Positions 29,396 through 58,971 of a stretch of 64,000 nt of DNA are shown piece after piece. How positions within the stretch are numbered: position 1 is the stretch's first letter; each line of letters starts with the position of its first letter. Source of the stretch: an uncultured bacterium (lineage in GTDB: Bacteria > Patescibacteriota > Minisyncoccia > Moranbacterales > UBA2206); contig CAIMIV010000042.1 of NCBI GenBank assembly GCA_903841185.1, positions 11,319-75,318 of the forward strand. The letters are read 5' to 3'. The notes beneath the pieces were generated by a model. The model saw only the letters and a program-made list of their open reading frames with translations. It searched no databases and was not told where the DNA came from. The translations under genes and the position numbers were made by a program.

Positions 29396-29615
29396 TAACA
29401 AAGAATATCTGGTTCAAAAAATTTGCCGCAGTTAAAAATACAAGGAGGGCAAATTTTTTTCTCCCCTGCCTACCGGCAGGCAGGCAAATCCCGCACTTTT
29501 CCATTTTGTCGTAATTTAGGGTATAATAGGATTAATAAATAAATAGGAATATTAAGGTTTTATGCATAAAAACCAAAGTGCAGGACTTCAGATATTCTTA
29601 AACGTTAGGTGTAAT
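29396..29615 (+). repeat. copy 4 of the ~200-bp island repeat carrying a 22-bp palindromic insertion
   Basis: Same as copies 1 and 2, except that ctgcctaccggcaggcaggca is inserted after ctccc. The same 25-mer occurs at 10297. Confidence 0.7.
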
Positions 29616-37632: not shown

Positions 37633-38007
37633 ATGACAGAACTAAACCAGGTGTACAAATGTAATATCTGTGGCAATATGACCGAGGTCATCCATGTTGG
37701 CGGCGGGGAGTTGGTGTGTTGCGGAGCGGCGATGGAGCTGCAAGTGGAAAGAAATGATGAGGAGAGATATGAAAAACATAATCCAATAGTTGAGAGAGTG
37801 GAAGGTGGCATAATTGTGACTGTGGGAAGCATGCCTCATCCCATGGAAAGCGAGCATTATATCGAATGGATTGAAGTCATTACGGAACACCGCACTTACC
37901 GAAAAAATTTAGAGCCGGGTGGAGTGCCGGAAGCTGAATTCTTCTTTGAGGCGGAACATTTTGAAGTGCGAGCCTATTGTAATCTGCATGGAATGTGGGT
38001 GGCCTGA
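37633..38007 (+). CDS. dfx: desulfoferrodoxin (2Fe superoxide reductase)
   Basis: An N-terminal desulforedoxin-like domain KCNICGNMTEV...LVCCG is followed by a neelaredoxin domain with His/Cys ligands (HNP, HPMESEH, CNLHGMW). Confidence 0.8.
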   Translation: MTELNQVYKCNICGNMTEVIHVGGGELVCCGAAMELQVERNDEERYEKHNPIVERVEGGIIVTVGSMPHPMESEHYIEWIEVITEHRTYRKNLEPGGVPEAEFFFEAEHFEVRAYCNLHGMWVA

Positions 38008-38053
38008 AGATATTATCCCAGCACTAATTCCGATATAGTTTGTAGGTAATATG

Positions 38054-38173
38054 GGGATGCGTGTGCGAATTCGCCTCCGGCTAGGTTGAAATTTAATAAA
38101 TTAATTCAAGTGCGAATTAGTGCGGGATGCTTATTTTTATAGCTACTCGTTCCTCGCAGATAAAAATAGCATG
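38054..38173 (+). promoter_or_regulatory. partial copy of a structured leader element shared with nusG and rplK
   Basis: gtgcgaattcgcctccggcta ... tgcgaattagtgcgggatgc, then the stem tatttttat/ataaaaata enclosing the ATG at 38171. Confidence 0.4.
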
Positions 38174-46583: not shown

Positions 46584-49500
46584 ATGTCGCAAGCTGAGGA
46601 ATCATGCTCGATTTTTGAAAAATATAAACTGCACAAAAATTACTTCTTGTTGTTTGTAGTTTTTTGTGTCTTTGCCTTACTCAAATATCTTTCTCGATAC
46701 GAATCTTTGAGCAATTTTGTCATGGGGGCAATAGCCGTTTCCCCCTTCATCCTAACCACTGCTTTTCTCACTTGGGTCTATCTGAAGGATCGCAAGAACC
46801 ATGTCTTGTATAAGCTGATGATGAAGCAGGATGTTTTTCTCAAACTGGCTTTCAAATTGACTCTATCAGTTCTGGTGATATTGGTGGTTTTGTTTCCGGG
46901 CGATTGGAAACCGCTGTTGAATTTTTTTGATGTCGTCCGCCGGTCATTTTCCCTGGAGATGTATTTTCTTATTGCCTCATATCTCGCCGCCTTCATTCTC
47001 GCCGGCGAACTGATTTCTTTTTTTGTACGCTTGTATCAAATCAGTGTAGGCACCTATCATCACAAGATTTATCATGTTTTTAAAAAAACCCTCTACTCGA
47101 CTTTTTTTGTTTTTTTCCTGTTATTGCTTTTTTCCGTCCTGACTTATCCGCAAGCTTTCTATCCGATTACCGACGCTGTGTCCGATGTCATGTTCACCGT
47201 TAGTCAAGGTACCGTGGCTTTGTCTAAGTTATCCGGCGGGGAATTGCAAAGCAATACTTCGCTACTTAATCTGGCTAAGAATGCTTTTTCCAAAACTTCC
47301 TCCAATCTAGTCCGCAAGATGGATACAACTCAGTCGGATCTGGCCAAGTCTGTAGCACTCAGCCGGGATGCCCTTGTGCAATCGGTAGCGGACACTTCCA
47401 AAAATCTGACCGAATCGACTAATGGCAAAGTATCTTCCGATGGCGGCAAGATCAGTGGGGCGGTGGTTCTGTCCGGCAAAGGTTCTGACTTGACAGTGGA
47501 GGGCACCACTATCACTAAAGACATTCTACCGGATGCATCGTTGTCATATAATTTGGGCAGCGCAGGCAAGACTTGGAACACGGTGTATGCTCATCGCCTC
47601 ATCGGAGCGTCCCCGGTTTTCATCGGCACCGGTTCTTCCGCTCAAGGTTTGACTAATGATGGCGACCTAGTCGTGTCAAGCGATTTGGAAGTGCGAGGGA
47701 AAATTTATGCCACGCAAATTATCGGACCGGTTTCGAACACAAATAAATTTGAAGGCGGAATAATAACCAGTAGCATCGTTCCGGATGGATCAAATATCAA
47801 CCTCGGCAGCGCCAGCAATCATTTTTCCACGGTCTATGCCAACAGTCTCGTGGGTGTGCCTTTGAATTTTCTGCCGCTGATCGGTGGCACGCTTTCCGGT
47901 AATTTGAATTTAGGCAATCATAGTTTTACCACTTTCAATTCAGTCCTAGTGGACAATCTCAATGCGGATTTGTTGGATGGCAGTCAGGCCAGTGCTTTTG
48001 CCATGCTCAACGGCAGAAGTGGCGGACAAACAATCACTGGCGACACAGCGGCCGGCGGTAATCTGACCTTGTCTTCTACGAACAATGCTGCCAAAGGCAA
48101 AATAGTTTTTGGCAATTCTGCCTATGATGAAAAATCTAATCGATTGGGAATTGGCACAAACACTCCGGGCGCTCTGCTGCACCTGAACAATGCCACTGCC
48201 GGCCAAAAATCTTTGATCATCCAAGGTGCGCAAAACCAATCCGCTAATTTGGTGGAAATCTATGGCTATGATTCCGGTGGCATTCCGAATGGCCAGACTT
48301 TTGACAACGCGCCGGTTTTTGATGACGCGCATACCTTTGACAACGCACCGTCTTTGATCAATCTAACTTTTGATAATAATCCTTCTAGTCTATCTGCCAT
48401 CGCCAATTACAACAGCAGTTCAGCCTACAGCGCTTACAACAATTCGCATTCGTTGAAAATATATGCCTACAAAATAATCAACGGAATTAAAATTTTTAAT
48501 CCGACGCCGATTGTAACTGCATTGAATGACGACAACAGCGGTCGTACCTACACTATCAGCTGGTCTTGGTCGCCAGCCACGGATGCGGATGGTTATCGCA
48601 TCTTCAAATCCATTAGTGACGGCTCAGCTAATTTTGATAAATTCACGGATGTAGTCGGCACGAGTTTCTACGACACTGGCGCCACTGATTTTTCTCAAGA
48701 CGGAACCTTTGACGGACGCACGAGCTTGGCCTATGCGGTCAATTACAATACCGGTTCAAGCTACGCGGCTAACGGCAGTCAGCATCAATTAGTAGTGTAT
48801 GCCTATGAATTGCATAATGGCGTCAAAATTTTCAATAACGCGCCGTTGCACATCATCCCACAGATTGATTCCAGTGGTCGAAATTTTTCTCTGGATTATT
48901 CGTGGACAGCGGCCAGTGGCGCCGACGGTTATCGGGTGTTTGACTATGACAGCTCCGCCGGAATCTATGTCAGTCGCTATGCAGACATCACGACTACGAA
49001 CTTCCATGATGCCGGTCAAAATGATTTCACGAGCAGCGGAACATTCAATGGATCTACGAGCTATACCGACGGCCATGTAGTCAATTATGGCTCCGGTTCG
49101 AGCTACGTTGCCAATGGCCAAGAACACGGCGTACGCGTCTATGCATATAAAGAATATGCCGGCACCAAGATTTTCAATCCGGATTATGCGCAAGCCCAGT
49201 TTACTGACAATAACAGCGGTCAGCACTATACCATCGATTGGTCATGGACGGCGGCCGCGGGTGCCACCGGTTATCGCGTGTTTGATTTCGACAGTGGCAA
49301 CAGCATCAATTTTGATAAATATAGCGATGTCACTAATTCCAATTTCCAAGACGCCAGTCCCGGCAGCTTCACTCACACTGGTACTTTTGACGGCATGACG
49401 GAATATACCGGTTCGATGATGGCTTCTATTTCCAAAGACGGCATTATCGACGCCGCTGGTTTTTCCATCAATGGCGTGGCGCTTAGCGTTTCCGGCTGGG

Positions 49501-52500
49501 GGAATATTGGTGGCAATCTAGCCGATCAAACTGATTTGGTGTCAGCCTTGGGAGCCAAATTGAGTCTCACAGGCGGCACGATGAGTGGTATCTTGAATTT
49601 ACCCAGCAATGGTTTGATAGTCGGCACTACTCAGATAGTCGCCCTTAACGGAGCGGTGGGCATTGGCACAGCGACCCCGTCAGCCAGTTATCAATTGACC
49701 GTCAATGGCGATGTCAATGTGACTAACGGCCTGTTGCGTTTTTCCGGCACGCAGATCGGACTTAATAATTTGAAAAATGTCGCAGTCGGTTCGCCCGCGG
49801 TCAATCAAGTACTGGCGTTCAATGGCACCAATTGGGTCAATACCACCTTAAGCAGTGTTTCCGCGGGCAATGTCGTGTCTTTCTATTTGCAAACTCAAGC
49901 TGGTGACATTTCACCTTTCAAGCAATTGCAAGCTACTCCGGGCGCGGGTTCTGAGGTGGATGTGCATGCCACAGTCAGCAACAACCTGAGCAGTCCAACT
50001 TTGCTGGAAGAATATATCTCTTCCGCCGCGGGACTTGGTGGCAATCAAATTGATGGCGGGGAGTGGGAATTTGACACCTTCGGTTTCGTTTCCGATGCAA
50101 GCGGCGATTCGGAAATTCAAATCGATGTTTTTACGCGAGCTACCAACGGCACCGAGACCTATCTATTCACCGCCAATACCGGATCAATCACCGGCACTAC
50201 CGCTGATGCACAAGCGATGGCAGTCAATTCGACTCAATCAGCTTTCAGCATCGCACCCAGTGACCGTTTAGTGGTCAAATATTCGGCTAAAACGGATTTG
50301 CTCAGCGGAACAACAATCCATCTTTTGCATAACGGTCAAGATCATTATTCACATTTTCATACGCCAATGCTCACGCGCCATAATGATATGGCCGGTTTGC
50401 AAGGCGGAACCAATCAGCAATATTATCATCTAACATCTTCTGAATACACCGGGACAGGGACAGGGACTTTTGTGCGGCAATCTTCACCGGCTTTCACCGG
50501 CACAACGACCGGTATCACCGCAACTATGGTGGGGTTGGGGAATGTGCCGAATTTGGCGTTCAGCGGTTCCAATACGGGCGACAATGCCGTCAATTCTCTG
50601 TATAGTGGCTTGATTACTAATGCCACGCACACAGGTGACGCGACGGGCGCAAGCGCTTTGACCGTGGTGGGCATCAACGGCACGCAATTGTCAGCATTAG
50701 CGACCGGCATTTTGAAAAACACCACCACCACTGGCGTGCCGAGTATCGCCGTGGCGGGAGATTTTCCGACTTTGAATCAAAACACCTCCGGCACCGCCGC
50801 CGGACTTTCTGCTATATTGGTATCTACCAGTGGCGGTTCTGGCATTAACAATTCCGGCACTTTGACTTGGGGCACAGGTGGCACCTTGGGAACAAATGCT
50901 TTCACGAGCACAGCCTATGCGCCATTGGCTTCACCGACATTTACGGGAGACATAAATTTCCCTGGTTCTGGGGTTTGGAATTCGAGTGGCAACGTGGGGA
51001 TTGGGACGATTTCGCCAAACGCACTACTAGATATAAATCATATTGGTGCAATTGCTATTCCCGGCTTTAATATTGCGGCAACAGATGCAAACAATGCCTA
51101 TCAATTAAAAATCTTGGGCCACACAGGAGGGGTCTCTCATACACAAATTGTAACGGACAATTCCAATAGCAGATTAACAGTAATGGCAGGAGCGCAAAAT
51201 GACTTTGCTCCACGCATGTTCTTTATTGGTGCGCAAGATGCAACAACATCCTTGCGAGGTTGGGGAACATTTGATTATGGTTCAAATTTATATGATTTAG
51301 ATACTGCAGAGTTCCAAGTAAGACAGGTCTCCACTGGTGGGTTCACTACCATGTTCAGATCAGTTGGAAAAGCTGGGTCATTATTTCCTTCTGGAACAGT
51401 TGGAATAGGAAGTTCTGTCATATCTGTCGCCAAATTTTCGGTAGAAAATACCGGAACTACGGATTCTTTTTTAGTTAACGATGAGGCGAGTGACACAACG
51501 CCGTTTGTAATTAATACAGATGGTAACGTTGGTATTGGGAGGACAAGTCCGGGCTATAAATTAGATATTTCTACGCCAGGAAATTCTGATGCACAATTAC
51601 ATATTAATTCATCAAATCCTTATAGTGATACGGGAGGGTATATTAGTAGCGGAGCGGCGGCTAATCTAGGTTTGGCAGGAGGAACCGCACTTAGTGGTGG
51701 GGCATGGAAAGTTAAAACAACTACCGGAGCTTCACTTATAAATTTGGGTTCAGGCGCAATGACTTTTTATACAAATGACACAAGTGCTGCTACTCCCGGA
51801 GATATCTTGAGCCTGTCAGCCCGTATGAAAATAACCAATACCGGCAACGTCGGCATCGGGGCGACGAGTCCTCTATACAAATTTGATGTATCAAATGACG
51901 GAGTAGCGAAATCCTTGCTCCACTTTTCTCAGAGCGGAACGGACGTTGGTGGATGGTTAACATCTGTGGGTGACGGTAATTTTTATATGTCATCTGGCAT
52001 GGAATATGATGCGGGAGCTGGTGGCTGGATTCAAAAATCATCAAACGGAGTTGGCAATATCATTGGCGGTGATTCGCCAGGACTGTCATTTTACACGACA
52101 AGCGGAACGGCAGTTGGATCTGTTGCAACCCTTGCTGTACGTATGAGAATAGATACGAGTGGTAACGTCGGGATTGGAACGACGGCTCCATCAACTAATT
52201 TTGAAGTTTATAGTCCCACAGTGACAAATGGTATTGTTATCCCTTTGAGAGTTAATGGAAGAATTGGAAATACGAGCGGTCAAGATGGAGTGGGAATGGA
52301 TTTTAATGGCATTTGGGATTCTTCCGGATCTGCTTTTACATTGGGTAGAATTGTCGGCAGAGAATATGGTGGTTATAAAGGAGGTTTATCTTTTTTGGTT
52401 AACAATAATGGAGCTACTGCTCCCAATTCTGCAGTAATGTCCGAGGCAATGAGAATGGATAATGTCGGTAACGTGGGGATTGGGACATCGAGTCCTGTGG

Positions 52501-55500
52501 CGAGGTTAGATGTTTCGCCAACAGTTATTACCACCACTGACCTGAAGGGGATGAATAGTGGATTGGTCTATAACGGTGGATCTACTATGACGAATTATTA
52601 CGGCCATTACATTGCCACCCCATCCGGAACAGGAATCATTACAAATAAATATGCCTTAGTAACTGAAGCTGGAGCTGGCAACGTTGGCATCGGCACGACG
52701 AGTCCAACAAACATCTTGTCTCTCGGCAACGGGGCAGCGCAAAAATTTTGGATTGAAAACTCAGTCAGTGGAACTGTCGGTCGAGCCTTGACTGTCGCTG
52801 CTGGCGGGACTGTCGCTGGCGGGACTGACATTGCGGGTGGCAATCTGATTTTGCAATCCGGTCTTGGCACGGGCACTGGCGCTAGTGCAATTTCTTTTCA
52901 AACCGGCACAACTCTCACAACCGGCACAACTTTGCAGACAATGTCTACAAAGATGACGATTTTGGGGAATGGGAATGTGGGGATTGGAACGACGAGCCCG
53001 GCAACTTTAGCGCATGTGAATCTTTCATCGGCTGCGGTGGGGACAGCGTTATATTCTTCTAATTCTGCGCTGACCCTTTCTAATCAGGATAATTCCGTGT
53101 CAGCAGATTACGTGGTTGCTGATGGAACTGCTACGCCAGGGTATCGAGGAGTTATAAGAGGTATCAGGGCGCGTGGAACTTTGGCATCTCCCACTGTGCC
53201 AGTATTAAATGATATTGTCTTTTCAGTTTTGGGTGGTATTTATGATGGTGCATCGGTTTTAAATACGGCTGCCGTAGACCTTAAAGTTGATGGTACTGTG
53301 TCTTCTGGTGTAGCTCCGCAGAGAATATCTTTTAGTACAAAGACCGGCGGGAGTGGTGGATTTGTTGAAAGGCTGACAATAAAAAATGACGGACTTATCG
53401 GGATTGGCACGACGAGCCCGGCGAGTTCTTTGAATATTGCATCATCCTTAGTGAGCACTGCTAATTATGGAACTTTGTCGGTGGGATCTTCTCCATGGGA
53501 CGGATCAACTAGTGGTAAGTTTGTTGGAGGCAGTAGTGGCACCCTAATTGCGGTTAATGCTCCTAATGTTGCAGGACTTGGATTGATTGATCTCCAATCA
53601 TTCGGCGTCAGTAGATTCAGAGTGGATTCAACGTCTGGTGTTACGATTGGAAATGCCAGTGCGGGTGCACAAAACGGTACTCACATAAGTGACCTGATGA
53701 TTTACCCTACTAGCGCTATCAATCTGACGGCCGAAGGCAGTCCAAACCTGATTATGAATGCTAATTCGTTTACAATTACTGGTGGGTATGCTACGCAAAG
53801 ATTTAATTTATTTAACCAATCAACTATCACAGCTGTTTCAGCTTTAAACATTTCAACCGAAGCGGATACATTGAATATAGCCGGCGCACCAATTTCCGCT
53901 GGTTCGGCCACGATCGCCAAATCAATTGGACTGCGGATTTCCGCCGGGACCTCGGTCGCCGCGGGGGTGACGAACGCGTACGGTTTGTATGTTGATGCTC
54001 CAACTGGTGCGAGTAATAATTATGCAGCGGTATTTAATACCGGCAATGTGGGGATTGGGACGACGAGTCCCGGATATAAATTATCAGTGGCGACACCAGG
54101 AGTGACGGCTTCACAGATGCAGATTAATTCAGCCAATCCGGCGGATGATACGGGGATGTATCTGACTTCAGCAGCGTCTGGCAATGGATTTGTTTCGGCA
54201 GGGGCTGCTTATAATGGCAGCGCTTGGGTCGCGAAGTCTGCGACCGCTTGGTCATTTGGTGGCGGAGCGTCTGGTATCAGTTGGTCTTATGATACTGGAT
54301 TAACTGCAGGCAATACTTTTACACAATCGACACGATTGAAAATTGGCACGACAGGACTGATTAGTATAGGGACTGGCAATTTATTAGCTGGGCTGGACGT
54401 TCAAAATAGCATTACTGCTACTTCGGCAGTGGCTTATGGAACAAGGCTTCAGCAAACATTAACCGCGGCGGCTAACAATGATGCGCTTGATGCCGTTTAT
54501 ATTAATCCAACTTTTACAGATGGGGCGAATACAGGCGTGACACATAACGGATTAATCGTAGTAAGTGGCAATGTCGGTATCGGGACAACGACGCCGGCCT
54601 ATACACTGGATGTCAAAGCCGCCGGCACTGGCGTCATTGCTCGCTTCAATAATAATAACAGCACCGGATGCACAGTTGCTGATGGCGGAACGATCACTTG
54701 CACTTCCGATGTCAGGCTAAAAAAGAACATCAATGATTTGAATTATGGATTGAACGAAATCATGTCTTTGCGTCCGGTTGACTATAATTGGAGATATCAA
54801 AATGACAATGGCCAAAAATATCTAGGTTTCATCGCTCAAGAAGTGGAACAACTGTTGCCACAGTTAATTATGACAGACGCTAACGGCTACAAAGAACTTA
54901 ACACAATCGGGCTTATTCCAATCCTGACTAAATCCGTGCAAGAGCAGCAGACTGAAATTGGTGTGCAGACGCAATCAATTGCGTCTCTACAGATCAAGAC
55001 TGATAGCAACATCACCACTCTGACGGATCTGCAAAAATCAGTTGACACGCAATTGAATGTGGTGGGCAAGAGTTTGAATGTGATTAACACGCAGATCAGC
55101 GCCCAGGCGCAATCGATTGCGTCGCTGCAAGGCAAATTGGATGATCAGGAAACGAGATTGAAAGATCAAGAAGCTTTGTCAATTACTTTGCAAGCACAAA
55201 TTGCCAAATTGCAAGAACTGGTTAATCCGGATGCACTGGCATTGCTAAGCAGCAAACTGGATGCTATCTCAGAATTTATTACGATTTCTGACGGAAAATT
55301 TGATTTACTGCAAGGCACATTGAAAGCTAGTGGTGTGGAGACGGGCAAATTGGTGATTTCTGTTTCTGCGGGATCTGAAAACAACACTATCGGTGAAGCG
55401 GTTATTTGTCCGGCCGGTAAAAAAATAGACTCGACTATCCTCGCGGGAGGGACTGATTATAACAAATGTATTCTGGATGACGCAAGTTCTGATGGCAAGA

Positions 55501-55682
55501 GCGTGAAGGTGAAAGCTAGCGCGGTGACCAAGGATTCCAAAGTTTTCGTAACAGCTAAGACTGTTTCCGATAAGCCTTTGGCTGTTTCTGTGATTGAAGA
55601 CGGCAAGGGCTTTACAGTGGAAACCAAAACAGTAGTCAGTGAAGATCTGAAATTTGACTGGTGGATCGTAGGTGCAAAATAA
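46584..55682 (+). CDS. giant membrane-anchored cell-surface fibre protein with C-terminal phage tail-fibre-type intramolecular chaperone (peptidase S74) domain
   Basis: 3032 aa. Five to six N-terminal TM helices, three FN3-like repeats (W-S-W-xxA-DGYR-F), about 20 NVGIGT(T/S)SP repeats, TSDVRLKKNI...LRPVDYNW S74 autoproteolytic motif, and a coiled-coil tail. Confidence 0.7.
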   Translation: MSQAEESCSIFEKYKLHKNYFLLFVVFCVFALLKYLSRYESLSNFVMGAIAVSPFILTTAFLTWVYLKDRKNHVLYKLMMKQDVFLKLAFKLTLSVLVILVVLFPGDWKPLLNFFDVVRRSFSLEMYFLIASYLAAFILAGELISFFVRLYQISVGTYHHKIYHVFKKTLYSTFFVFFLLLLFSVLTYPQAFYPITDAVSDVMFTVSQGTVALSKLSGGELQSNTSLLNLAKNAFSKTSSNLVRKMDTTQSDLAKSVALSRDALVQSVADTSKNLTESTNGKVSSDGGKISGAVVLSGKGSDLTVEGTTITKDILPDASLSYNLGSAGKTWNTVYAHRLIGASPVFIGTGSSAQGLTNDGDLVVSSDLEVRGKIYATQIIGPVSNTNKFEGGIITSSIVPDGSNINLGSASNHFSTVYANSLVGVPLNFLPLIGGTLSGNLNLGNHSFTTFNSVLVDNLNADLLDGSQASAFAMLNGRSGGQTITGDTAAGGNLTLSSTNNAAKGKIVFGNSAYDEKSNRLGIGTNTPGALLHLNNATAGQKSLIIQGAQNQSANLVEIYGYDSGGIPNGQTFDNAPVFDDAHTFDNAPSLINLTFDNNPSSLSAIANYNSSSAYSAYNNSHSLKIYAYKIINGIKIFNPTPIVTALNDDNSGRTYTISWSWSPATDADGYRIFKSISDGSANFDKFTDVVGTSFYDTGATDFSQDGTFDGRTSLAYAVNYNTGSSYAANGSQHQLVVYAYELHNGVKIFNNAPLHIIPQIDSSGRNFSLDYSWTAASGADGYRVFDYDSSAGIYVSRYADITTTNFHDAGQNDFTSSGTFNGSTSYTDGHVVNYGSGSSYVANGQEHGVRVYAYKEYAGTKIFNPDYAQAQFTDNNSGQHYTIDWSWTAAAGATGYRVFDFDSGNSINFDKYSDVTNSNFQDASPGSFTHTGTFDGMTEYTGSMMASISKDGIIDAAGFSINGVALSVSGWGNIGGNLADQTDLVSALGAKLSLTGGTMSGILNLPSNGLIVGTTQIVALNGAVGIGTATPSASYQLTVNGDVNVTNGLLRFSGTQIGLNNLKNVAVGSPAVNQVLAFNGTNWVNTTLSSVSAGNVVSFYLQTQAGDISPFKQLQATPGAGSEVDVHATVSNNLSSPTLLEEYISSAAGLGGNQIDGGEWEFDTFGFVSDASGDSEIQIDVFTRATNGTETYLFTANTGSITGTTADAQAMAVNSTQSAFSIAPSDRLVVKYSAKTDLLSGTTIHLLHNGQDHYSHFHTPMLTRHNDMAGLQGGTNQQYYHLTSSEYTGTGTGTFVRQSSPAFTGTTTGITATMVGLGNVPNLAFSGSNTGDNAVNSLYSGLITNATHTGDATGASALTVVGINGTQLSALATGILKNTTTTGVPSIAVAGDFPTLNQNTSGTAAGLSAILVSTSGGSGINNSGTLTWGTGGTLGTNAFTSTAYAPLASPTFTGDINFPGSGVWNSSGNVGIGTISPNALLDINHIGAIAIPGFNIAATDANNAYQLKILGHTGGVSHTQIVTDNSNSRLTVMAGAQNDFAPRMFFIGAQDATTSLRGWGTFDYGSNLYDLDTAEFQVRQVSTGGFTTMFRSVGKAGSLFPSGTVGIGSSVISVAKFSVENTGTTDSFLVNDEASDTTPFVINTDGNVGIGRTSPGYKLDISTPGNSDAQLHINSSNPYSDTGGYISSGAAANLGLAGGTALSGGAWKVKTTTGASLINLGSGAMTFYTNDTSAATPGDILSLSARMKITNTGNVGIGATSPLYKFDVSNDGVAKSLLHFSQSGTDVGGWLTSVGDGNFYMSSGMEYDAGAGGWIQKSSNGVGNIIGGDSPGLSFYTTSGTAVGSVATLAVRMRIDTSGNVGIGTTAPSTNFEVYSPTVTNGIVIPLRVNGRIGNTSGQDGVGMDFNGIWDSSGSAFTLGRIVGREYGGYKGGLSFLVNNNGATAPNSAVMSEAMRMDNVGNVGIGTSSPVARLDVSPTVITTTDLKGMNSGLVYNGGSTMTNYYGHYIATPSGTGIITNKYALVTEAGAGNVGIGTTSPTNILSLGNGAAQKFWIENSVSGTVGRALTVAAGGTVAGGTDIAGGNLILQSGLGTGTGASAISFQTGTTLTTGTTLQTMSTKMTILGNGNVGIGTTSPATLAHVNLSSAAVGTALYSSNSALTLSNQDNSVSADYVVADGTATPGYRGVIRGIRARGTLASPTVPVLNDIVFSVLGGIYDGASVLNTAAVDLKVDGTVSSGVAPQRISFSTKTGGSGGFVERLTIKNDGLIGIGTTSPASSLNIASSLVSTANYGTLSVGSSPWDGSTSGKFVGGSSGTLIAVNAPNVAGLGLIDLQSFGVSRFRVDSTSGVTIGNASAGAQNGTHISDLMIYPTSAINLTAEGSPNLIMNANSFTITGGYATQRFNLFNQSTITAVSALNISTEADTLNIAGAPISAGSATIAKSIGLRISAGTSVAAGVTNAYGLYVDAPTGASNNYAAVFNTGNVGIGTTSPGYKLSVATPGVTASQMQINSANPADDTGMYLTSAASGNGFVSAGAAYNGSAWVAKSATAWSFGGGASGISWSYDTGLTAGNTFTQSTRLKIGTTGLISIGTGNLLAGLDVQNSITATSAVAYGTRLQQTLTAAANNDALDAVYINPTFTDGANTGVTHNGLIVVSGNVGIGTTTPAYTLDVKAAGTGVIARFNNNNSTGCTVADGGTITCTSDVRLKKNINDLNYGLNEIMSLRPVDYNWRYQNDNGQKYLGFIAQEVEQLLPQLIMTDANGYKELNTIGLIPILTKSVQEQQTEIGVQTQSIASLQIKTDSNITTLTDLQKSVDTQLNVVGKSLNVINTQISAQAQSIASLQGKLDDQETRLKDQEALSITLQAQIAKLQELVNPDALALLSSKLDAISEFITISDGKFDLLQGTLKASGVETGKLVISVSAGSENNTIGEAVICPAGKKIDSTILAGGTDYNKCILDDASSDGKSVKVKASAVTKDSKVFVTAKTVSDKPLAVSVIEDGKGFTVETKTVVSEDLKFDWWIVGAK

Positions 55683-55935: not shown

Positions 55936-56065
55936 CACTTCGACTCATCTTGATTTACATCAAGATTCGCTCAGTGTAAACACCAGCCAATGAATATTCA
56001 TTGAGCTTGAGAAACAACACTGAGTCGAAGTACCATGAGCTTGTCGAATGGCAAGCGTAGTAACT

Positions 56066-56341
56066 ATGGAAATTATTGAAAAAGAGGGTCTCTGGTATGT
56101 TTATATAGCCAGAGCAAGAACAAATAAATACTACGTAGGAATCAGCAATAATGTTGAAAAAAGAATAGACAAGCACAATAGTGGGAACGGTTCCAATATG
56201 GCAAAGCAACAAGGACCATTTTGCTTGGTTTATAAATCTGGGTCATTTATAAACAAATCAGAAGCAAGAAAGAGAGAGGCTCAAATAAAAAAATGGAGTA
56301 GAGTTAAAAAAGAGAATCTCTTGAATGGAGAGTGGAAATAA
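56066..56341 (+). CDS. GIY-YIG nuclease superfamily protein (UPF0213/YhbQ-like)
   Basis: LWYVYIARARTNKYYVGISNNVEKRIDKHN...IKKWSR. Confidence 0.75.
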   Translation: MEIIEKEGLWYVYIARARTNKYYVGISNNVEKRIDKHNSGNGSNMAKQQGPFCLVYKSGSFINKSEARKREAQIKKWSRVKKENLLNGEWK

Positions 56342-56349
56342 AATAGCAC

Positions 56350-56431
56350 GGGCGTATAGCTCAGTTTCCGCCGGTAGGCGGACCAGCCTATGGCTGGGGT
56401 CGAAAAATGACGAGGCCTCTGGTTCGAGTCC
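56350..56431 (+). pseudogene. partial duplicate of tRNA-Ile with an internal 41-nt GC-hairpin insertion
   Basis: The first 19 nt are identical to tRNA-Ile (gggcgtatagctcagtt). Then comes tccgccggtaggcgga ccagcctatggctgg, then tgacgaggcctctggttcgagtcc identical to the tRNA-Ile 3' half. No 3' acceptor strand follows. Confidence 0.4.
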
Positions 56432-56460
56432 GAGAAAAGCAGTTCACAATATAAAATGTA

Positions 56461-56534
56461 GGGCGTATAGCTCAGTTGGTTAGAGCGCGTCACTGATAAT
56501 GACGAGGCCTCTGGTTCGAGTCCAGATATGCCCA
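56461..56534 (+). tRNA. tRNA-Ile (anticodon GAU)
   Basis: Cloverleaf with anticodon stem cguca/ugacg, loop cuGAUaa, T-loop GTTCGAGTC and acceptor gggcgua/uaugccc. Confidence 0.9.
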
Positions 56535-56661
56535 CCTATGTTTTTTGTTTATGTTGACAACATTATTTTTATAGTATACACTTATATATAGAAAAGCCTT
56601 CAGGGGCTTTTTAAAAAACCGTAAAAACGCTTTTAAGTAAAAAAGGCTTAAATAAAAGAAA

Positions 56662-56847
56662 ATGTCTAATATAACAATGTTTTTGAAAGAGGCTAAATCG
56701 GAATTGCTAAAGGTTAATTGGCCCAGCAAAAACCAAATCATTAATTATACTATTTTGGTCATCGGCATCAGCATTGCCGGCGCTATCTTTTTGGGAAGTT
56801 TAGATTTTGGATTTAGTTATTTATTAAAAACATTTATCATTAAATAA
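56662..56847 (+). CDS. secE: preprotein translocase subunit SecE
   Basis: 61 aa with a single C-terminal TM helix and ELLKVNWPSK, immediately upstream of nusG. Confidence 0.8.
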   Translation: MSNITMFLKEAKSELLKVNWPSKNQIINYTILVIGISIAGAIFLGSLDFGFSYLLKTFIIK

Positions 56848-56853
56848 ATGCTG

Positions 56854-57010
56854 GCATCCCGCAACGAATTCCATAATAGTTTTGTGTTATGGAAAAATTT
56901 GTTTGCAGATTCGCCTGCGGCTACACTAAATTATAAAAATTAAAGATTAATTAGCGAATTCGTGCGGGACGCTCATATTTGTAGCTGCTCGTACCTCGCA
57001 AACAAATATG
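56854..57010 (+). promoter_or_regulatory. structured ~155-nt leader element upstream of nusG
   Basis: A long-range stem pairs gcatcccgcaacgaattc with gaattcgtgcgggacgc. The proximal stem catatttgt/acaaatATG contains the start codon. Confidence 0.45.
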
Positions 57011-57553
57011 GCGAAACAAACCCAACATCACGGAAGAGCGTGGTATGTGATTCATACCTACAGTGGCTATGAAGACAATGTGGCGCGCAACCTGAAACAA
57101 AGAATCGAATCGATGGATATGCAGGATTTGATTTTTGATGTCATGGTTCCGATTGAAAAGAAAATCAAGATCAAAGCGGGCAAGCGCACGGTGATTGAAG
57201 AGAAGATCTATCCCGGCTATGTGCTAGTGGAGATGATTGTCACCGATGCTTCCTGGTACGTGGTGCGAAACACGCCGAACGTCACTGGATTTATCGGACT
57301 CGGTACTACTCCAACCCCGGTGGATACAGCTGAAATTGAGATGTTGAAGAAACGCATGGGTGTGTCTGAACCGAAATATAAGATTGACGTGGCCGTGGGC
57401 GATTCCATCAAAGTGGTGGATGGACCCTTCAAGGATTTTGATGCCAAGGTGGATGAGGTGGATGAGGCTAAGGGCAGAGTGAAAGTTCTGGTGTCTATCT
57501 TCGGTAGAGAAACCCCGGTGGAACTAGACTTTTTACAGATACATAAATTATAA
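57008..57553 (+). CDS. nusG: transcription termination/antitermination factor NusG
   Basis: NGN domain WYVIHTYSGYE and a KOW motif. Confidence 0.9.
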   Translation: MAKQTQHHGRAWYVIHTYSGYEDNVARNLKQRIESMDMQDLIFDVMVPIEKKIKIKAGKRTVIEEKIYPGYVLVEMIVTDASWYVVRNTPNVTGFIGLGTTPTPVDTAEIEMLKKRMGVSEPKYKIDVAVGDSIKVVDGPFKDFDAKVDEVDEAKGRVKVLVSIFGRETPVELDFLQIHKL

Positions 57554-57567
57554 GAAATGTAGGTGTG

Positions 57568-57725
57568 GCGTCCCGCAAAGAATTCCAAAATAGCTTCTAT
57601 ATTGTGGATAAATTTGTTTGCGAATTCGCCTTACGGCTACGTGCAGTTTTAACTAAAAAAATTAATTAGCGAATTCGTGCGGGATGCTCATATTTGTAGC
57701 TACTCGTACCTCGCAGACAAATATG
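57568..57725 (+). promoter_or_regulatory. structured ~155-nt leader element upstream of rplK
   Basis: About 90 percent identical to the nusG leader, with the same two stems. The rplK ATG (57723) lies in the 3' strand of the proximal stem. Confidence 0.45.
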
Positions 57726-58148
57726 GCAAAAAAGATTAAAACAGTTATTAAGTTACAAATCGGAGCCGGGAAAGCAAATCCAGCGCCTCCAGTTGGTCCG
57801 GCTTTGGGTCAACATGGTTTGAATATTCAAGAATTTTGCACCAAATTTAATGAAGCTACCAAGGCTCAAATGGGAGACATTATCCCGGCAGAAATCACAG
57901 TCTATGAGGATCGCACTTTCTCATTTGTCCTAAAAACTTCTCCGGCTTCTGACTTGTTGCGCAAAGCAGCTGGCGTACCGAAAGGAGCTGGCAACCCATT
58001 GAAAGATAAGGTAGGGAAAATCAGTGAAGCGCAACTGCGAGAAATTGCCGAAAAGAAGTTGACTGATTTGAACGCCAATGATGTAGAAGCCGCCATGAAG
58101 ATCATTGCTGGCACAGCGAGATCTATGGGAATCAAAATCGAAGGATAG
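57723..58148 (+). CDS. rplK: 50S ribosomal protein L11
   Basis: [32 protein letters not shown]. Confidence 0.9.
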
Positions 58149-58149
58149 A

Positions 58150-58230
58150 CCCGATGCGAAACTACGAAACATGCATGAATCTACGAACTGTTCGTAGATT
58201 CGCATTTCATTCGTAGGTTCGAATCGGTTT
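58150..58230 (+). promoter_or_regulatory. nested stem-loop structure between rplK and rplA (candidate L1 autoregulatory site)
   Basis: Perfect 11-bp hairpin gaatctacgaa ctg ttcgtagattc, nested inside cgaaactacgaa..ttcgtaggttcg and atgcgaa..ttcgcat pairings. Confidence 0.35.
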
Positions 58231-58296
58231 AATAATTTAATTTATGTGGAAGAAGTTTATACAAGAAAATAACTTCGCTAATACCACGACAAATAT

Positions 58297-58971
58297 ATGA
58301 GACACGGAAAAAAACATCGTGCAGTAGCCGAGAAAATCGACAAGAACACCATCTATTCCTTGGAAGAAGCGGTGAAGATGATGAAGGAAAACAAGATGGC
58401 TAAATTTGATGAATCAGTGGAGGTGCACATCAAAACTAGCGTGGATCCCAAGAAAGGTGATCAACAAGTTCGTTCTACAGTAGTGTTGCCACATGGCACA
58501 GGCAAGACCAAGATTGTTGCCGTTATCACTTCCACCAGCGTGGAGGAAGCTAAATTGGCCGGAGCTGACATCGTGGGTGGAGAAGAATTAATTGAAAAAT
58601 TTGCTAAAAAAATTGATTTTGACGTCTTAGTAGCTACTCCGGAAATGATGCCCAAGCTGGCGCGCGTGGCGAAAGTGCTGGGGCCAAAGGGTTTGATGCC
58701 AAATCCCAAAACAGAAACCGTGACCACCAAAATCAAGGAAGCAGTGGAAGCTTTGAAAAAAGGACGAGCGGCTTTCAAGAATGATGATTCCGCTAATATC
58801 CATCAAGCTGTGGGAAAACTTTCCTTCGATGATGCAAAAATCATTGAAAATATCAAGGCTTTTGTAGAAGCCGTGGAAAGAGCCAAGCCAGCCGGTTCTA
58901 AAGGAAAACTGATTACCAACATCACTCTTTGCTCTACTATGGGCAATGGCATCCGAGTGAAAATGGCCTAA
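58297..58971 (+). CDS. rplA: 50S ribosomal protein L1
   Basis: MRHGKKHRAVAEKIDKNTIYSLEEAV and the L1 fold. Confidence 0.9.
   Translation: MRHGKKHRAVAEKIDKNTIYSLEEAVKMMKENKMAKFDESVEVHIKTSVDPKKGDQQVRSTVVLPHGTGKTKIVAVITSTSVEEAKLAGADIVGGEELIEKFAKKIDFDVLVATPEMMPKLARVAKVLGPKGLMPNPKTETVTTKIKEAVEALKKGRAAFKNDDSANIHQAVGKLSFDDAKIIENIKAFVEAVERAKPAGSKGKLITNITLCSTMGNGIRVKMA

Follow-up and report, generated by a model that had tools for sequence, protein, structure and literature searches.

A family of folded repeats in register with start codons in intercistronic DNA of Candidatus Moranbacteria

Three homologous stretches of ~160 nt lie between genes in a 64-kb stretch of DNA from an uncultured bacterium (contig CAIMIV010000042.1; hereafter the window): one in the secE/nusG gap, one in the nusG/rplK gap, and one, at 38 kb, between a desulfoferrodoxin-like and a hypA-like gene. 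Judged by its NusG homologues, the window comes from Candidatus Moranbacteria (Parcubacteria, Candidate Phyla Radiation). A preliminary description had seen in these stretches a leader tied to three genes; they are instead members of a family of interspersed repeats, which counts at least 118 copies across 42 genomes and stands before about 100 different housekeeping genes. The element is a conserved folded structure held by compensatory change. Nearly every copy ends in ...ACAAAAATGGC (...ATGGC), and its ATG is either the start codon of the gene or directly precedes it. The interpretation that we tentatively favor is of a lineage-specific, proliferating, co-transcribed intercistronic cassette that carries the translation start region of the downstream gene.

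The element, its fold and its register with start codons

From 5′ to 3′ the element comprises the 5′ strand of stem P1, P2, the P3 motif, an A/U-rich stretch, the 3′ strand of P1 and a hairpin, H. P1 is a GC-rich closing stem (5′ strand consensus UCCC(A)GCACCAA(A)UUC, 3′ strand consensus GAAUUGGUGCGGGA), from which P2, a hairpin of variable sequence, runs straight on in a stacked arrangement. P3 is 3 bp long and lies within an almost invariant CGCCUNCGGCU motif (in fuller form (A)AUCGCCUNCGGCU(U)AG); in some copies its loop bears an additional hairpin. The A/U-rich linker is a single strand of 30-35 nt. H follows P1 directly, with zero spacer, and has the consensus (U/C)GC-U-CAUNUUUGU, AG bulge, 4-bp upper stem, 9-11-nt loop, ACAAANAUG-GC(A/G); its 3′ strand is an A-rich start region that contains no Shine-Dalgarno site (ACAAAAAUG-GCN).

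That a structured element is repeated upstream of nusG, rplK and the hypA-like gene was borne out. An unfiltered covariance-model run over the window returned exactly three strong matches, all on the + strand and each spanning model positions 1-172, and the core motifs occur three times against 0.01 expected by chance. The nusG and rplK copies (copies 1 and 2) are 83.5% identical over 158 nt, rather than the ~90 percent first given, and the hypA copy (copy 3), taken to be a partial one at 38054-38173, is full length (38016-38171). The upstream stop codons, of which that of nusG lies at 57551-57553 and that of the desulfoferrodoxin-like open reading frame (ORF) at 38005-38007, are about 9, 17 and 8 nt from copies 1, 2 and 3. 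The features of the locus and of the copies are these:

secE–rplA region, gene order: tRNA-Ala, a small ORF (presumably GIY-YIG-like), tRNA-Ile, secE, nusG, rplK, rplA
56845-57015, + strand: copy 1, model match, 135 bits
57559-57730, + strand: copy 2, model match, 140 bits
38004-38173, + strand: copy 3, model match, 127.7 bits, full model
56848..57006, + strand: copy 1, insertion unit of 159 nt, from the secE stop codon (56845-56847) to the TATGGC of nusG; a single clean gap with conserved flanks in pairwise alignment with L081 (UBA2282)
56857..56871, + strand: copy 1, P1 5′ strand TCCCGCAACGAATTC; partner 56956-56969 in folds, P1 covarying family-wide
56872..56892, + strand: copy 1, P2 variable hairpin, from the fold; 8/8 distal P2 pairs compensatory
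56913..56921, + strand: copy 1, P3 GCC-TGC-GGC inside the conserved CGCCTGCGGCT motif; 98% paired in 118 copies, polarity GGC/GCC in divergent copies
56922..56955, + strand: copy 1, A/U-rich linker; family 3′-end consensus AAARTTTAAWTAGC from position-specific composition, no sigma-70 match
56956..56969, + strand: copy 1, P1 3′ strand GAATTCGTGCGGGA, from folds
56970..57013, + strand: copy 1, hairpin H; 5′ strand C-GC-T-CATATTTGT, 3′ strand ACAAATATG-GC-G
57571..57728, + strand: copy 2; P1 5′ 57571-57585, P3 57628-57637, P1 3′ 57671-57684, H 57685-57728, from the fold
38016..38171, + strand: copy 3; P1 5′ 38016-38030, P3 38073-38081, P1 3′ 38114-38127, H 38128-38171, from the fold

Both stems that the preliminary description had proposed are recovered. 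The long-range stem pairs TCCCGCAACGAATTC with GAATTCGTGCGGGA in copy 1 and TCCCAGCACTAATTC with GAATTAGTGCGGGA in the hypA copy, with one compensatory change from G-C to U-A; the proximal hairpin (CATATTTGT/ACAAATATG against TATTTTTAT/ATAAAAATA) shows three compensatory changes and is present in the minimum-free-energy fold of all three copies. It is longer than described, taking in an additional GC and the third base of codon 2. The free energy of H is -14.3 kcal/mol in copy 1 (z-score -3.5), -12.7 kcal/mol in copy 2 and -6.3 kcal/mol in copy 3.

The same fold holds across the family. Over 118 copies 84% of cells are paired, double-sided changes occur at 29 of the 44 pairs, and 0 of 500 shuffles reach the observed values; when partners are shifted by 1-3 columns as a slid control, pairing falls to 29-49%. 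In H, 96% of cells are paired and 13 of 16 pairs are compensatory; among these pairs, the base before GCU and the wobble position of codon 2 change together (U-A 94, C-G 19). With divergent members included, 9 of the 11 P1 pairs are compensatory (e.g., CCCCACACUUUUCC/GAAAAGUGAGGGG and CCCCGCCCCAGUUU/AAACUGAGGUGGGG), and in some of these members the polarity of P3 is reversed from GCC/GGC to GGC/GCC. The tip of H varies freely and tolerates inserts of 80-100 nt, including nested P1-like palindromes. Relatives have many further copies, and these do covary, as the preliminary description had expected of a shared RNA; its view that the copies are not a simple promoter duplication is upheld by the double-sided changes and by the lack of a sigma-70-like promoter in the window copies. 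A pseudoknot or alternative pairs spotted by eye (GGCUA/UAGCU and UGCGGG/CUCGCA) were discarded, being unsupported in a mutual-information scan with average product correction (APC, for background).

The P1 palindrome is also encountered alone, as a short hairpin (TCCCGCACCAAATTTTGGTGCGGGA), and nested in the H loops of other copies (L044 about 965-1000; L035 3809-3900; L107 2440-2500). It may be an independent unit resembling repetitive extragenic palindromic (REP) sequences.

Of particular interest is the position of the start codon, which defines two classes of copy. In the ‘fused’ class the protein starts at the ATG of the element: NusG begins MAKQ..., L11 MAKKIK..., S14 MAKTST..., L20 MARVKRG... 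and DnaJ MADYY.... In the ‘after’ class the gene has its own ATG immediately behind the element (ATGGC|ATG), in a different frame from the inner ATG; here the inner ATG is often ATT, ATC, ATA or ACG, with a matching change in the 5′ strand. The loss of the inner ATG together with a compensating change argues that ribosomes can see the inner ATG and that the pairing is under selection. In the window the ATG of nusG (57008-57010) lies inside the H stem of copy 1, and the true ATG of rplK (57723-57725), at which the L11 protein alignment begins MAKKIKT, inside that of copy 2. The hypA copy belongs to the ‘after’ class: its internal ATG is mutated to ATA and the ATG of the hypA-like gene (38171-38173) comes immediately 3′ of the hairpin (ATAGC|ATG). 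The proposal that the start codon is sequestered in the proximal stem therefore stands for nusG and rplK and fails for hypA.

H is common but not obligatory, as divergent members make plain: some have UUG for AUG with a compensating change, others a separate GGAGG-N7-ATG after H. One divergent copy (L054 839-968) has, after the 3′ strand of P1, no H but a canonical TTGACA-N17-TAAATT promoter with an AAGGAG Shine-Dalgarno sequence.

Both ORF finding and public gene calls run into the element (window 57684-58148; L001; proteins P0003, P0012, P0014, P0036, P0058). For L11 they give 154 aa, counted from an ATG at 57684 that lies within the element, when the true start at 57723 gives 141 aa; several NusG homologues are annotated as 191-215 aa against 181 aa; and a 31-aa ‘gene’ is called inside copy 1. 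The covariance model of the family, R1, can be used to annotate it and to correct such over-extended gene starts.

Distribution, turnover and genomic context

A pattern scan of species-representative genomes with the conserved core GAATTNGTGCGGGNNGCTNATNTTTNT gave at least 118 stretches, and among the matches listed nearly all are in metagenome-assembled genomes (MAGs) of Moranbacteria or Parcubacteria. One match, in a Melainabacteria MAG, lacks a P1 partner and was set aside as chance. Model R1, built from 82 copies and searched in 8-kb pieces around the pattern matches, returned at least 118 matches of at least 96 bits in 42 genomes, with up to 13 per genome as a lower bound; it also recovered copies that the exact pattern misses, four of them within 5 kb of the L057 ribosomal-protein operon. 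Every strong copy reads in the direction of the gene that it precedes; seven of these lie on the locally C-rich strand, but GC skew is confounded with the coding strand. The exact pattern has no match in viral contigs that would point to a phage origin. In a search of the whole window against Rfam 15 at gathering score only two tRNAs pass, and at E values up to 10 the elements within 56500-58400 are unmatched save for a 41-nt chance miRNA match (E=9.9). Inspection by eye gave no match to tRNA-like, hammerhead, twister or K-turn motifs, the formal comparison being that with Rfam. With no Rfam family, and no paper found in a full-text literature search that matches it, the family appears not to have been described before.

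The presence of the element varies between close relatives. Those with 86-89% NusG identity lack it at both nusG and rplK; two contigs with identical NusG differ in its presence before hypA and before a kinase gene; and the close relative UBA2282 retains the rplK copy and has no nusG copy, the difference being one clean 159-nt gap. At the nusG site the empty sequence reads ...AAAATAA|TATGGCC and the occupied one ...AAATAA|ATGCTGGC-element-CAAACAAA|TATGGCG. Since the sequence before the ATG differs between the empty site (AAAATAAT) and the occupied one (AAACAAAT), the whole of hairpin H arrives with the element; a ‘guide’ model, by which the 3′ strand of H is native target sequence, was rejected on the same comparison. 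Just 5′ of P1 there is an (A)TGGC in 17 of 57 ‘fused’ but only 1 of 22 ‘after’ copies (those classifiable by script). Degenerate and not universal, it resembles an old start codon that was duplicated or kept.

Thirty-one copies have as their closest relative one that precedes another gene of their own genome (those at hypA and hypC in one genome are 98.7% identical, L14 and S8 copies 93%), and 15 have one that stands at the same gene in another genome; copies are therefore both multiplied and vertically retained. Multi-copy and polymorphic for presence between relatives, the family behaves as an interspersed repeat, and near-identical copies before unrelated genes, together with this polymorphism, identify a proliferating repeat rather than a fixed leader. 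The fetched 8-kb loci gave no sign of an autonomous parent, a unit of 1-5 kb with P1 arms on both sides, in a search made noisy by the palindromic nature of P1.

Upstream of 61 of 116 copies an ORF runs in the same direction and stops 0-23 nt short of the element, such that the cassette fills the whole spacer from stop to start; some copies follow tRNA genes or divergent genes. A promoter scan found sigma-70-like sites upstream of the tRNAs and of secE and none inside the window copies; the site nearest to the elements is at 56554-56582, upstream of secE. The position-specific profile of the linker contains the semi-conserved AAARTTTAAWTAGC and no -35/-10 pair, although non-canonical promoters may escape it. 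With no promoter in the copies and the nearest one upstream of secE, the elements should lie within the secE-nusG-rplK transcript. A Shine-Dalgarno-like 4-mer precedes 6 of 46 window genes, upstream regions being A-rich, and relatives without the element at the same genes have short spacers such as AAAAAACAATGGC. A small upstream ORF or leader peptide was considered and dismissed: an ATG lies no more than 14 nt 5′ of P1 in 48 of 116 copies, yet the stops are scattered like those of control frames.

A Pfam run on 107 distinct downstream proteins gave 109 families. The most frequent are L11 (6), S14 (4), and L7/L12, NusB, NusG and MnmA (3 each); L10, L20, L27, L36, GroEL, DnaJ, HypC and UvrA have two each, and L24 and about 100 further families are also matched, including pilins, membrane proteins and sugar enzymes. 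Pfam HypA is matched by three members of the downstream set.

Several neighboring features deserve mention. In the ribosomal-protein operons of relatives the same intercistronic slots are filled by other, unrelated repeat families, which form long hairpins of 80-150 nt (GATACGAATTA...TAATTCGGATATAATTAGGATATG and ACACAGAA...TTCTGTGT) and end at or a few nt before the start codon. These, and a weak match within the window, are located as follows:

L011 2946-6394; L031 4256-5788; L123; L036; L006/L007 10546-10695; L003 10546-10641: long-hairpin repeat loci
29460..29597, - strand: possible degenerate relative, a P1-like stem (TCCTGCACTTT...AAAGTGCGGGA) around AT-rich DNA, no ORF starting downstream; 16.3 bits (E=0.017) against the model, a weak match that alone is not significant

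The rplK-rplA spacer (58149-58296) contains a 12-bp hairpin (58176-58202) and then a leader; in relatives (the L002-L006 equivalents) the rplA leader has a conserved AAGTGGGAGA...CACCAC...ATATG motif, and it may be an L1-binding autoregulatory leader. Upstream, between tRNA-Ala and tRNA-Ile, a 97-aa ORF (56048-56341; MASVVTMEIIEKEGLWYVYIARARTNKYYVGISNNVEKRIDKHNSG...), which we take to be GIY-YIG-like, is directly followed by a degenerate duplicate of tRNA-Ile (56349-56440). The duplicate matches the true tRNA-Ile (56461-56536) in its first 17 nt and in the T-arm region (atgacgaggcctctggttcgagtcc), but an insertion follows its D-stem, its acceptor end is broken, and neither ARAGORN nor Rfam calls it. 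Immediately upstream of this tRNA/secE cluster lies a single giant ORF (46584-55682) of 3032 aa, surface-protein-like, with long, repetitive segments rich in Gly, Thr and Ser and a membrane region predicted near its N-terminus.

Cassette, repeat, processing site or operator

If the element is a co-transcribed start-region cassette, H would mask the start region and translation of the downstream cistron would depend on opening of the hairpin: H would gate initiation, and the cassette would set the translation level of the gene that follows. The opening would most likely fall to ribosomes, which would either use the adjacent A/U-rich single strand as a ‘standby’ platform on which to load, or terminate on the upstream cistron 0-23 nt from P1 and unzip the P1-P2 stack. 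That H is opened specifically by standby loading or by upstream coupling is conceivable, if doubtful. A regulatory role is plausible. Because it brings its own start codon along, the cassette could enter ahead of essential, highly expressed genes and leave them intact.

A number of observations weigh against this interpretation. A hairpin of -13 to -14 kcal/mol over the AUG should depress genes that need high expression, and some divergent variants have no following ORF or an H that covers no start codon. The mutual-information scan of the 118 copies gives only P1, P2 and H pairs plus subfamily signals, and so no alternative pairing that would open H. G-U pairs show no excess over A-C mismatches (150 vs 261 cells); the wobble signature of a sense-strand RNA is thus missing, which leaves room for a constraint on DNA or single-stranded DNA. 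The near-invariant sequence of P1 and of the P3 motif, together with the occurrence of P1 alone, suggests a sequence-specific partner for which the cassette model has no name. The same essential genes lack the element in close relatives, and any host function must therefore be dispensable. Finally, the placement of the whole element within the mRNA is deduced from the lack of room or signal for a promoter.

Some of these points would be expected of a purely selfish DNA repeat of the REP, REPIN or MITE (miniature inverted-repeat transposable element) type, with palindromes that serve a transposase or recombinase, possibly as single-stranded DNA, and no RNA function; only those insertions that restore ATGGC would survive. 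G-U and A-C mismatches that are about equally frequent, an almost invariant P1 palindrome found alone and nested in H loops, clean presence/absence polymorphism and near-identical copies ahead of unrelated genes in one genome all fit such a repeat, as do the direct-repeat-like (A)TGGC (17/57 vs 1/22, above) and the other, unrelated hairpin families in the same slots. What it does not readily explain is that every strong copy is sense, even the seven on the C-rich strand, and that inner AUGs which are out of frame are lost along with a compensating change, a mark of selection through translation. Moreover, the right P1 arm is internal where classical terminal inverted repeats would be terminal, the fetched loci contain no cognate transposase or longer autonomous element, and copies before the same gene in different genomes (e.g., S14, L33) retain site-specific loop variants. 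We consider this explanation rather unlikely, and also unlikely, a little more so, that the element is a site of mRNA punctuation or processing. An RNase III-type enzyme would cut the P1-P2 stack or H, thereby splitting cistrons, protecting the upstream mRNA and freeing a short A-rich leader, as at phage T7 sites. The intercistronic position with its filled spacer, the helix of ~26 bp into which P1 and P2 can stack, the conserved asymmetric AG bulge between the 12-bp lower and 4-bp upper stems of H, the 80-100 nt inserts accepted at its tip and the long perfect hairpins in the same slots of relatives are all compatible with cleavage. These genomes have an RNase III gene, which we take to be an ORF that lies beside nusB (L086, L124) and contains the ERLEFLGDAVLE motif. 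There is precedent in the Correia elements, repeats that are cut by RNase III (PMC2649163). However, RNase III would leave the invariant sequence of P1 and P3 unexplained, H at 16-17 bp is at the short end for its substrates, and copies that follow tRNA genes or divergent genes need no separation of cistrons.

Regulation in trans is a further option. In one form, H would be the expression platform to an aptamer or protein-binding site at the P1-P2-P3 junction, the whole being a shared translational operator through which a global signal co-regulates the translation apparatus. Highly conserved junction nucleotides beside freely covarying stems, the zero spacer between P1 and H, and a gene set dominated by translation and chaperone machinery suit an operator; its patchy presence at the same essential genes among close relatives, the pilins, membrane proteins and sugar enzymes in the gene set, the lack of a covarying alternative pairing and the lack of an Rfam family match do not, and we regard it as improbable. 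A speculative variant, to which we give slightly more credence while still thinking it quite unlikely, merges the operator with the mobile cassette: a mobile ‘start-codon cassette’ would swap the initiation region of highly expressed genes for a masked one that lacks a Shine-Dalgarno site, a dedicated trans-acting factor would read the invariant P1/P3 core, and in these bacteria of reduced genome the copies would together form a shared translational operator for ribosome and chaperone machinery, similar in function to the eukaryotic 5′ terminal oligopyrimidine (5′TOP) system but spread by transposition. Least probable is a mobile promoter cassette, with a promoter in the A/T-rich linker and transcripts that start near the 3′ strand of P1. 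It could draw on the semi-conserved AAARTTTAAWTAGC at the 3′ end of the linker and the TANNNT hexamer found 13-15 nt before GAATTGG in 59 of 111 copies, on two 5′-truncated copies that retain GGCTTA, the linker, the P1 3′ strand and H, and on the definition of putative mobile promoters by homologous upstream regions before non-homologous genes (PMC3488235). Yet the scan detected no sigma-70-like site in the window copies, no -35-like hexamer stands at the right distance, and covariation in the P1 5′ strand, P2 and H would go unexplained; the presence of a true TTGACA-N17-TAAATT where H would be, in one divergent copy, suggests that standard copies are promoterless.

Almost nothing is known of expression signals in the Candidate Phyla Radiation because these bacteria are uncultured. 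With this family, a single folded module is available in at least 100 natural replicates, placed exactly where core genes have their start codons, and the hosts mostly lack Shine-Dalgarno sites. Should it act in mRNA, it would show how internal cistrons are initiated or tuned without a Shine-Dalgarno sequence, and how a repeat can spread before essential genes by supplying the start codon.

Relation to known leaders and repeats

A local hairpin that masks the initiation region, beside a structured domain or a single-stranded landing pad, is common to translational riboswitches, RNA thermometers and ribosome standby sites. The cassette, too, has a hairpin over the initiation region next to a structured domain, but in contrast to translational riboswitches it has no ligand-coherent regulon (its downstream genes span 109 Pfam families), no conserved alternative pairing (mutual information over 118 copies gives the 5′ strand of H no second partner) and a patchy presence. 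Nor does it resemble the autoregulatory leader of a ribosomal protein, of which each operon has one and which mimics the rRNA site of the protein encoded there, as the same element stands before nusG, rplK, hypA and about 100 other genes. The intercistronic RNase III signals of phage T7 are homologous internal-loop hairpins just upstream of the start of the next gene, and the cassette likewise repeats homologous internal-loop hairpins between cistrons; the T7 signals, however, are phage-borne single hairpins with a Shine-Dalgarno sequence downstream, and the resemblance is structural only.

REP sequences and bacterial interspersed mosaic elements (BIME), the enterobacterial repetitive intergenic consensus (ERIC), and the BOX, RUP and SPRITE repeats of pneumococcus are palindromic, multi-copy and transcribed from intergenic or intercistronic DNA, and their RNA may affect stability or translation. 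They are out of register with start codons and supply no start region, and the three-way junction and separate start hairpin of the cassette are more elaborate than a palindrome of the REP, ERIC or BOX type. As a class, these enterobacterial and pneumococcal repeats offer one comparison (PMC3049150). Another is with the Correia repeat-enclosed elements (CREE) of Neisseria, which lie near gene starts, are co-transcribed, fold as RNA, affect the expression of neighbors and vary between strains (PMC2649163). CREE and the Moranbacteria cassette are alike in being interspersed, about 100-160 nt long, furnished with inverted repeats, near gene starts and variably present. CREE alone have true terminal inverted repeats and a TA target duplication, occur in both orientations and can create promoters, whereas in the cassette the right inverted repeat is internal, the orientation is always sense, no promoter is detected and the end is the start codon itself. 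The terminal inverted repeats of a MITE are similarly lacking: there are P1 arms of 14-15 nt, but the 44-nt H follows the right arm within the inserted unit.

Putative mobile promoters are defined by homologous upstream sequence before non-homologous genes, within or between genomes (PMC3488235), and this is what the family displays. Unlike them it contains no promoter consensus, with neither a sigma-70-like site in the window copies nor a -35/-10 pair in the linker; the part that is shared is a folded, RNA-like module plus a start codon. Taken together, in its behavior the cassette is nearest to the Correia, REP/BIME, ERIC and BOX repeats and to the ‘mobile promoters’ (PMC2649163, PMC3049150, PMC3488235, PMC10969869); it is set apart by its strict sense orientation, its three-way-junction core, its exact register with the start codon and the fact that it carries a start codon of its own.

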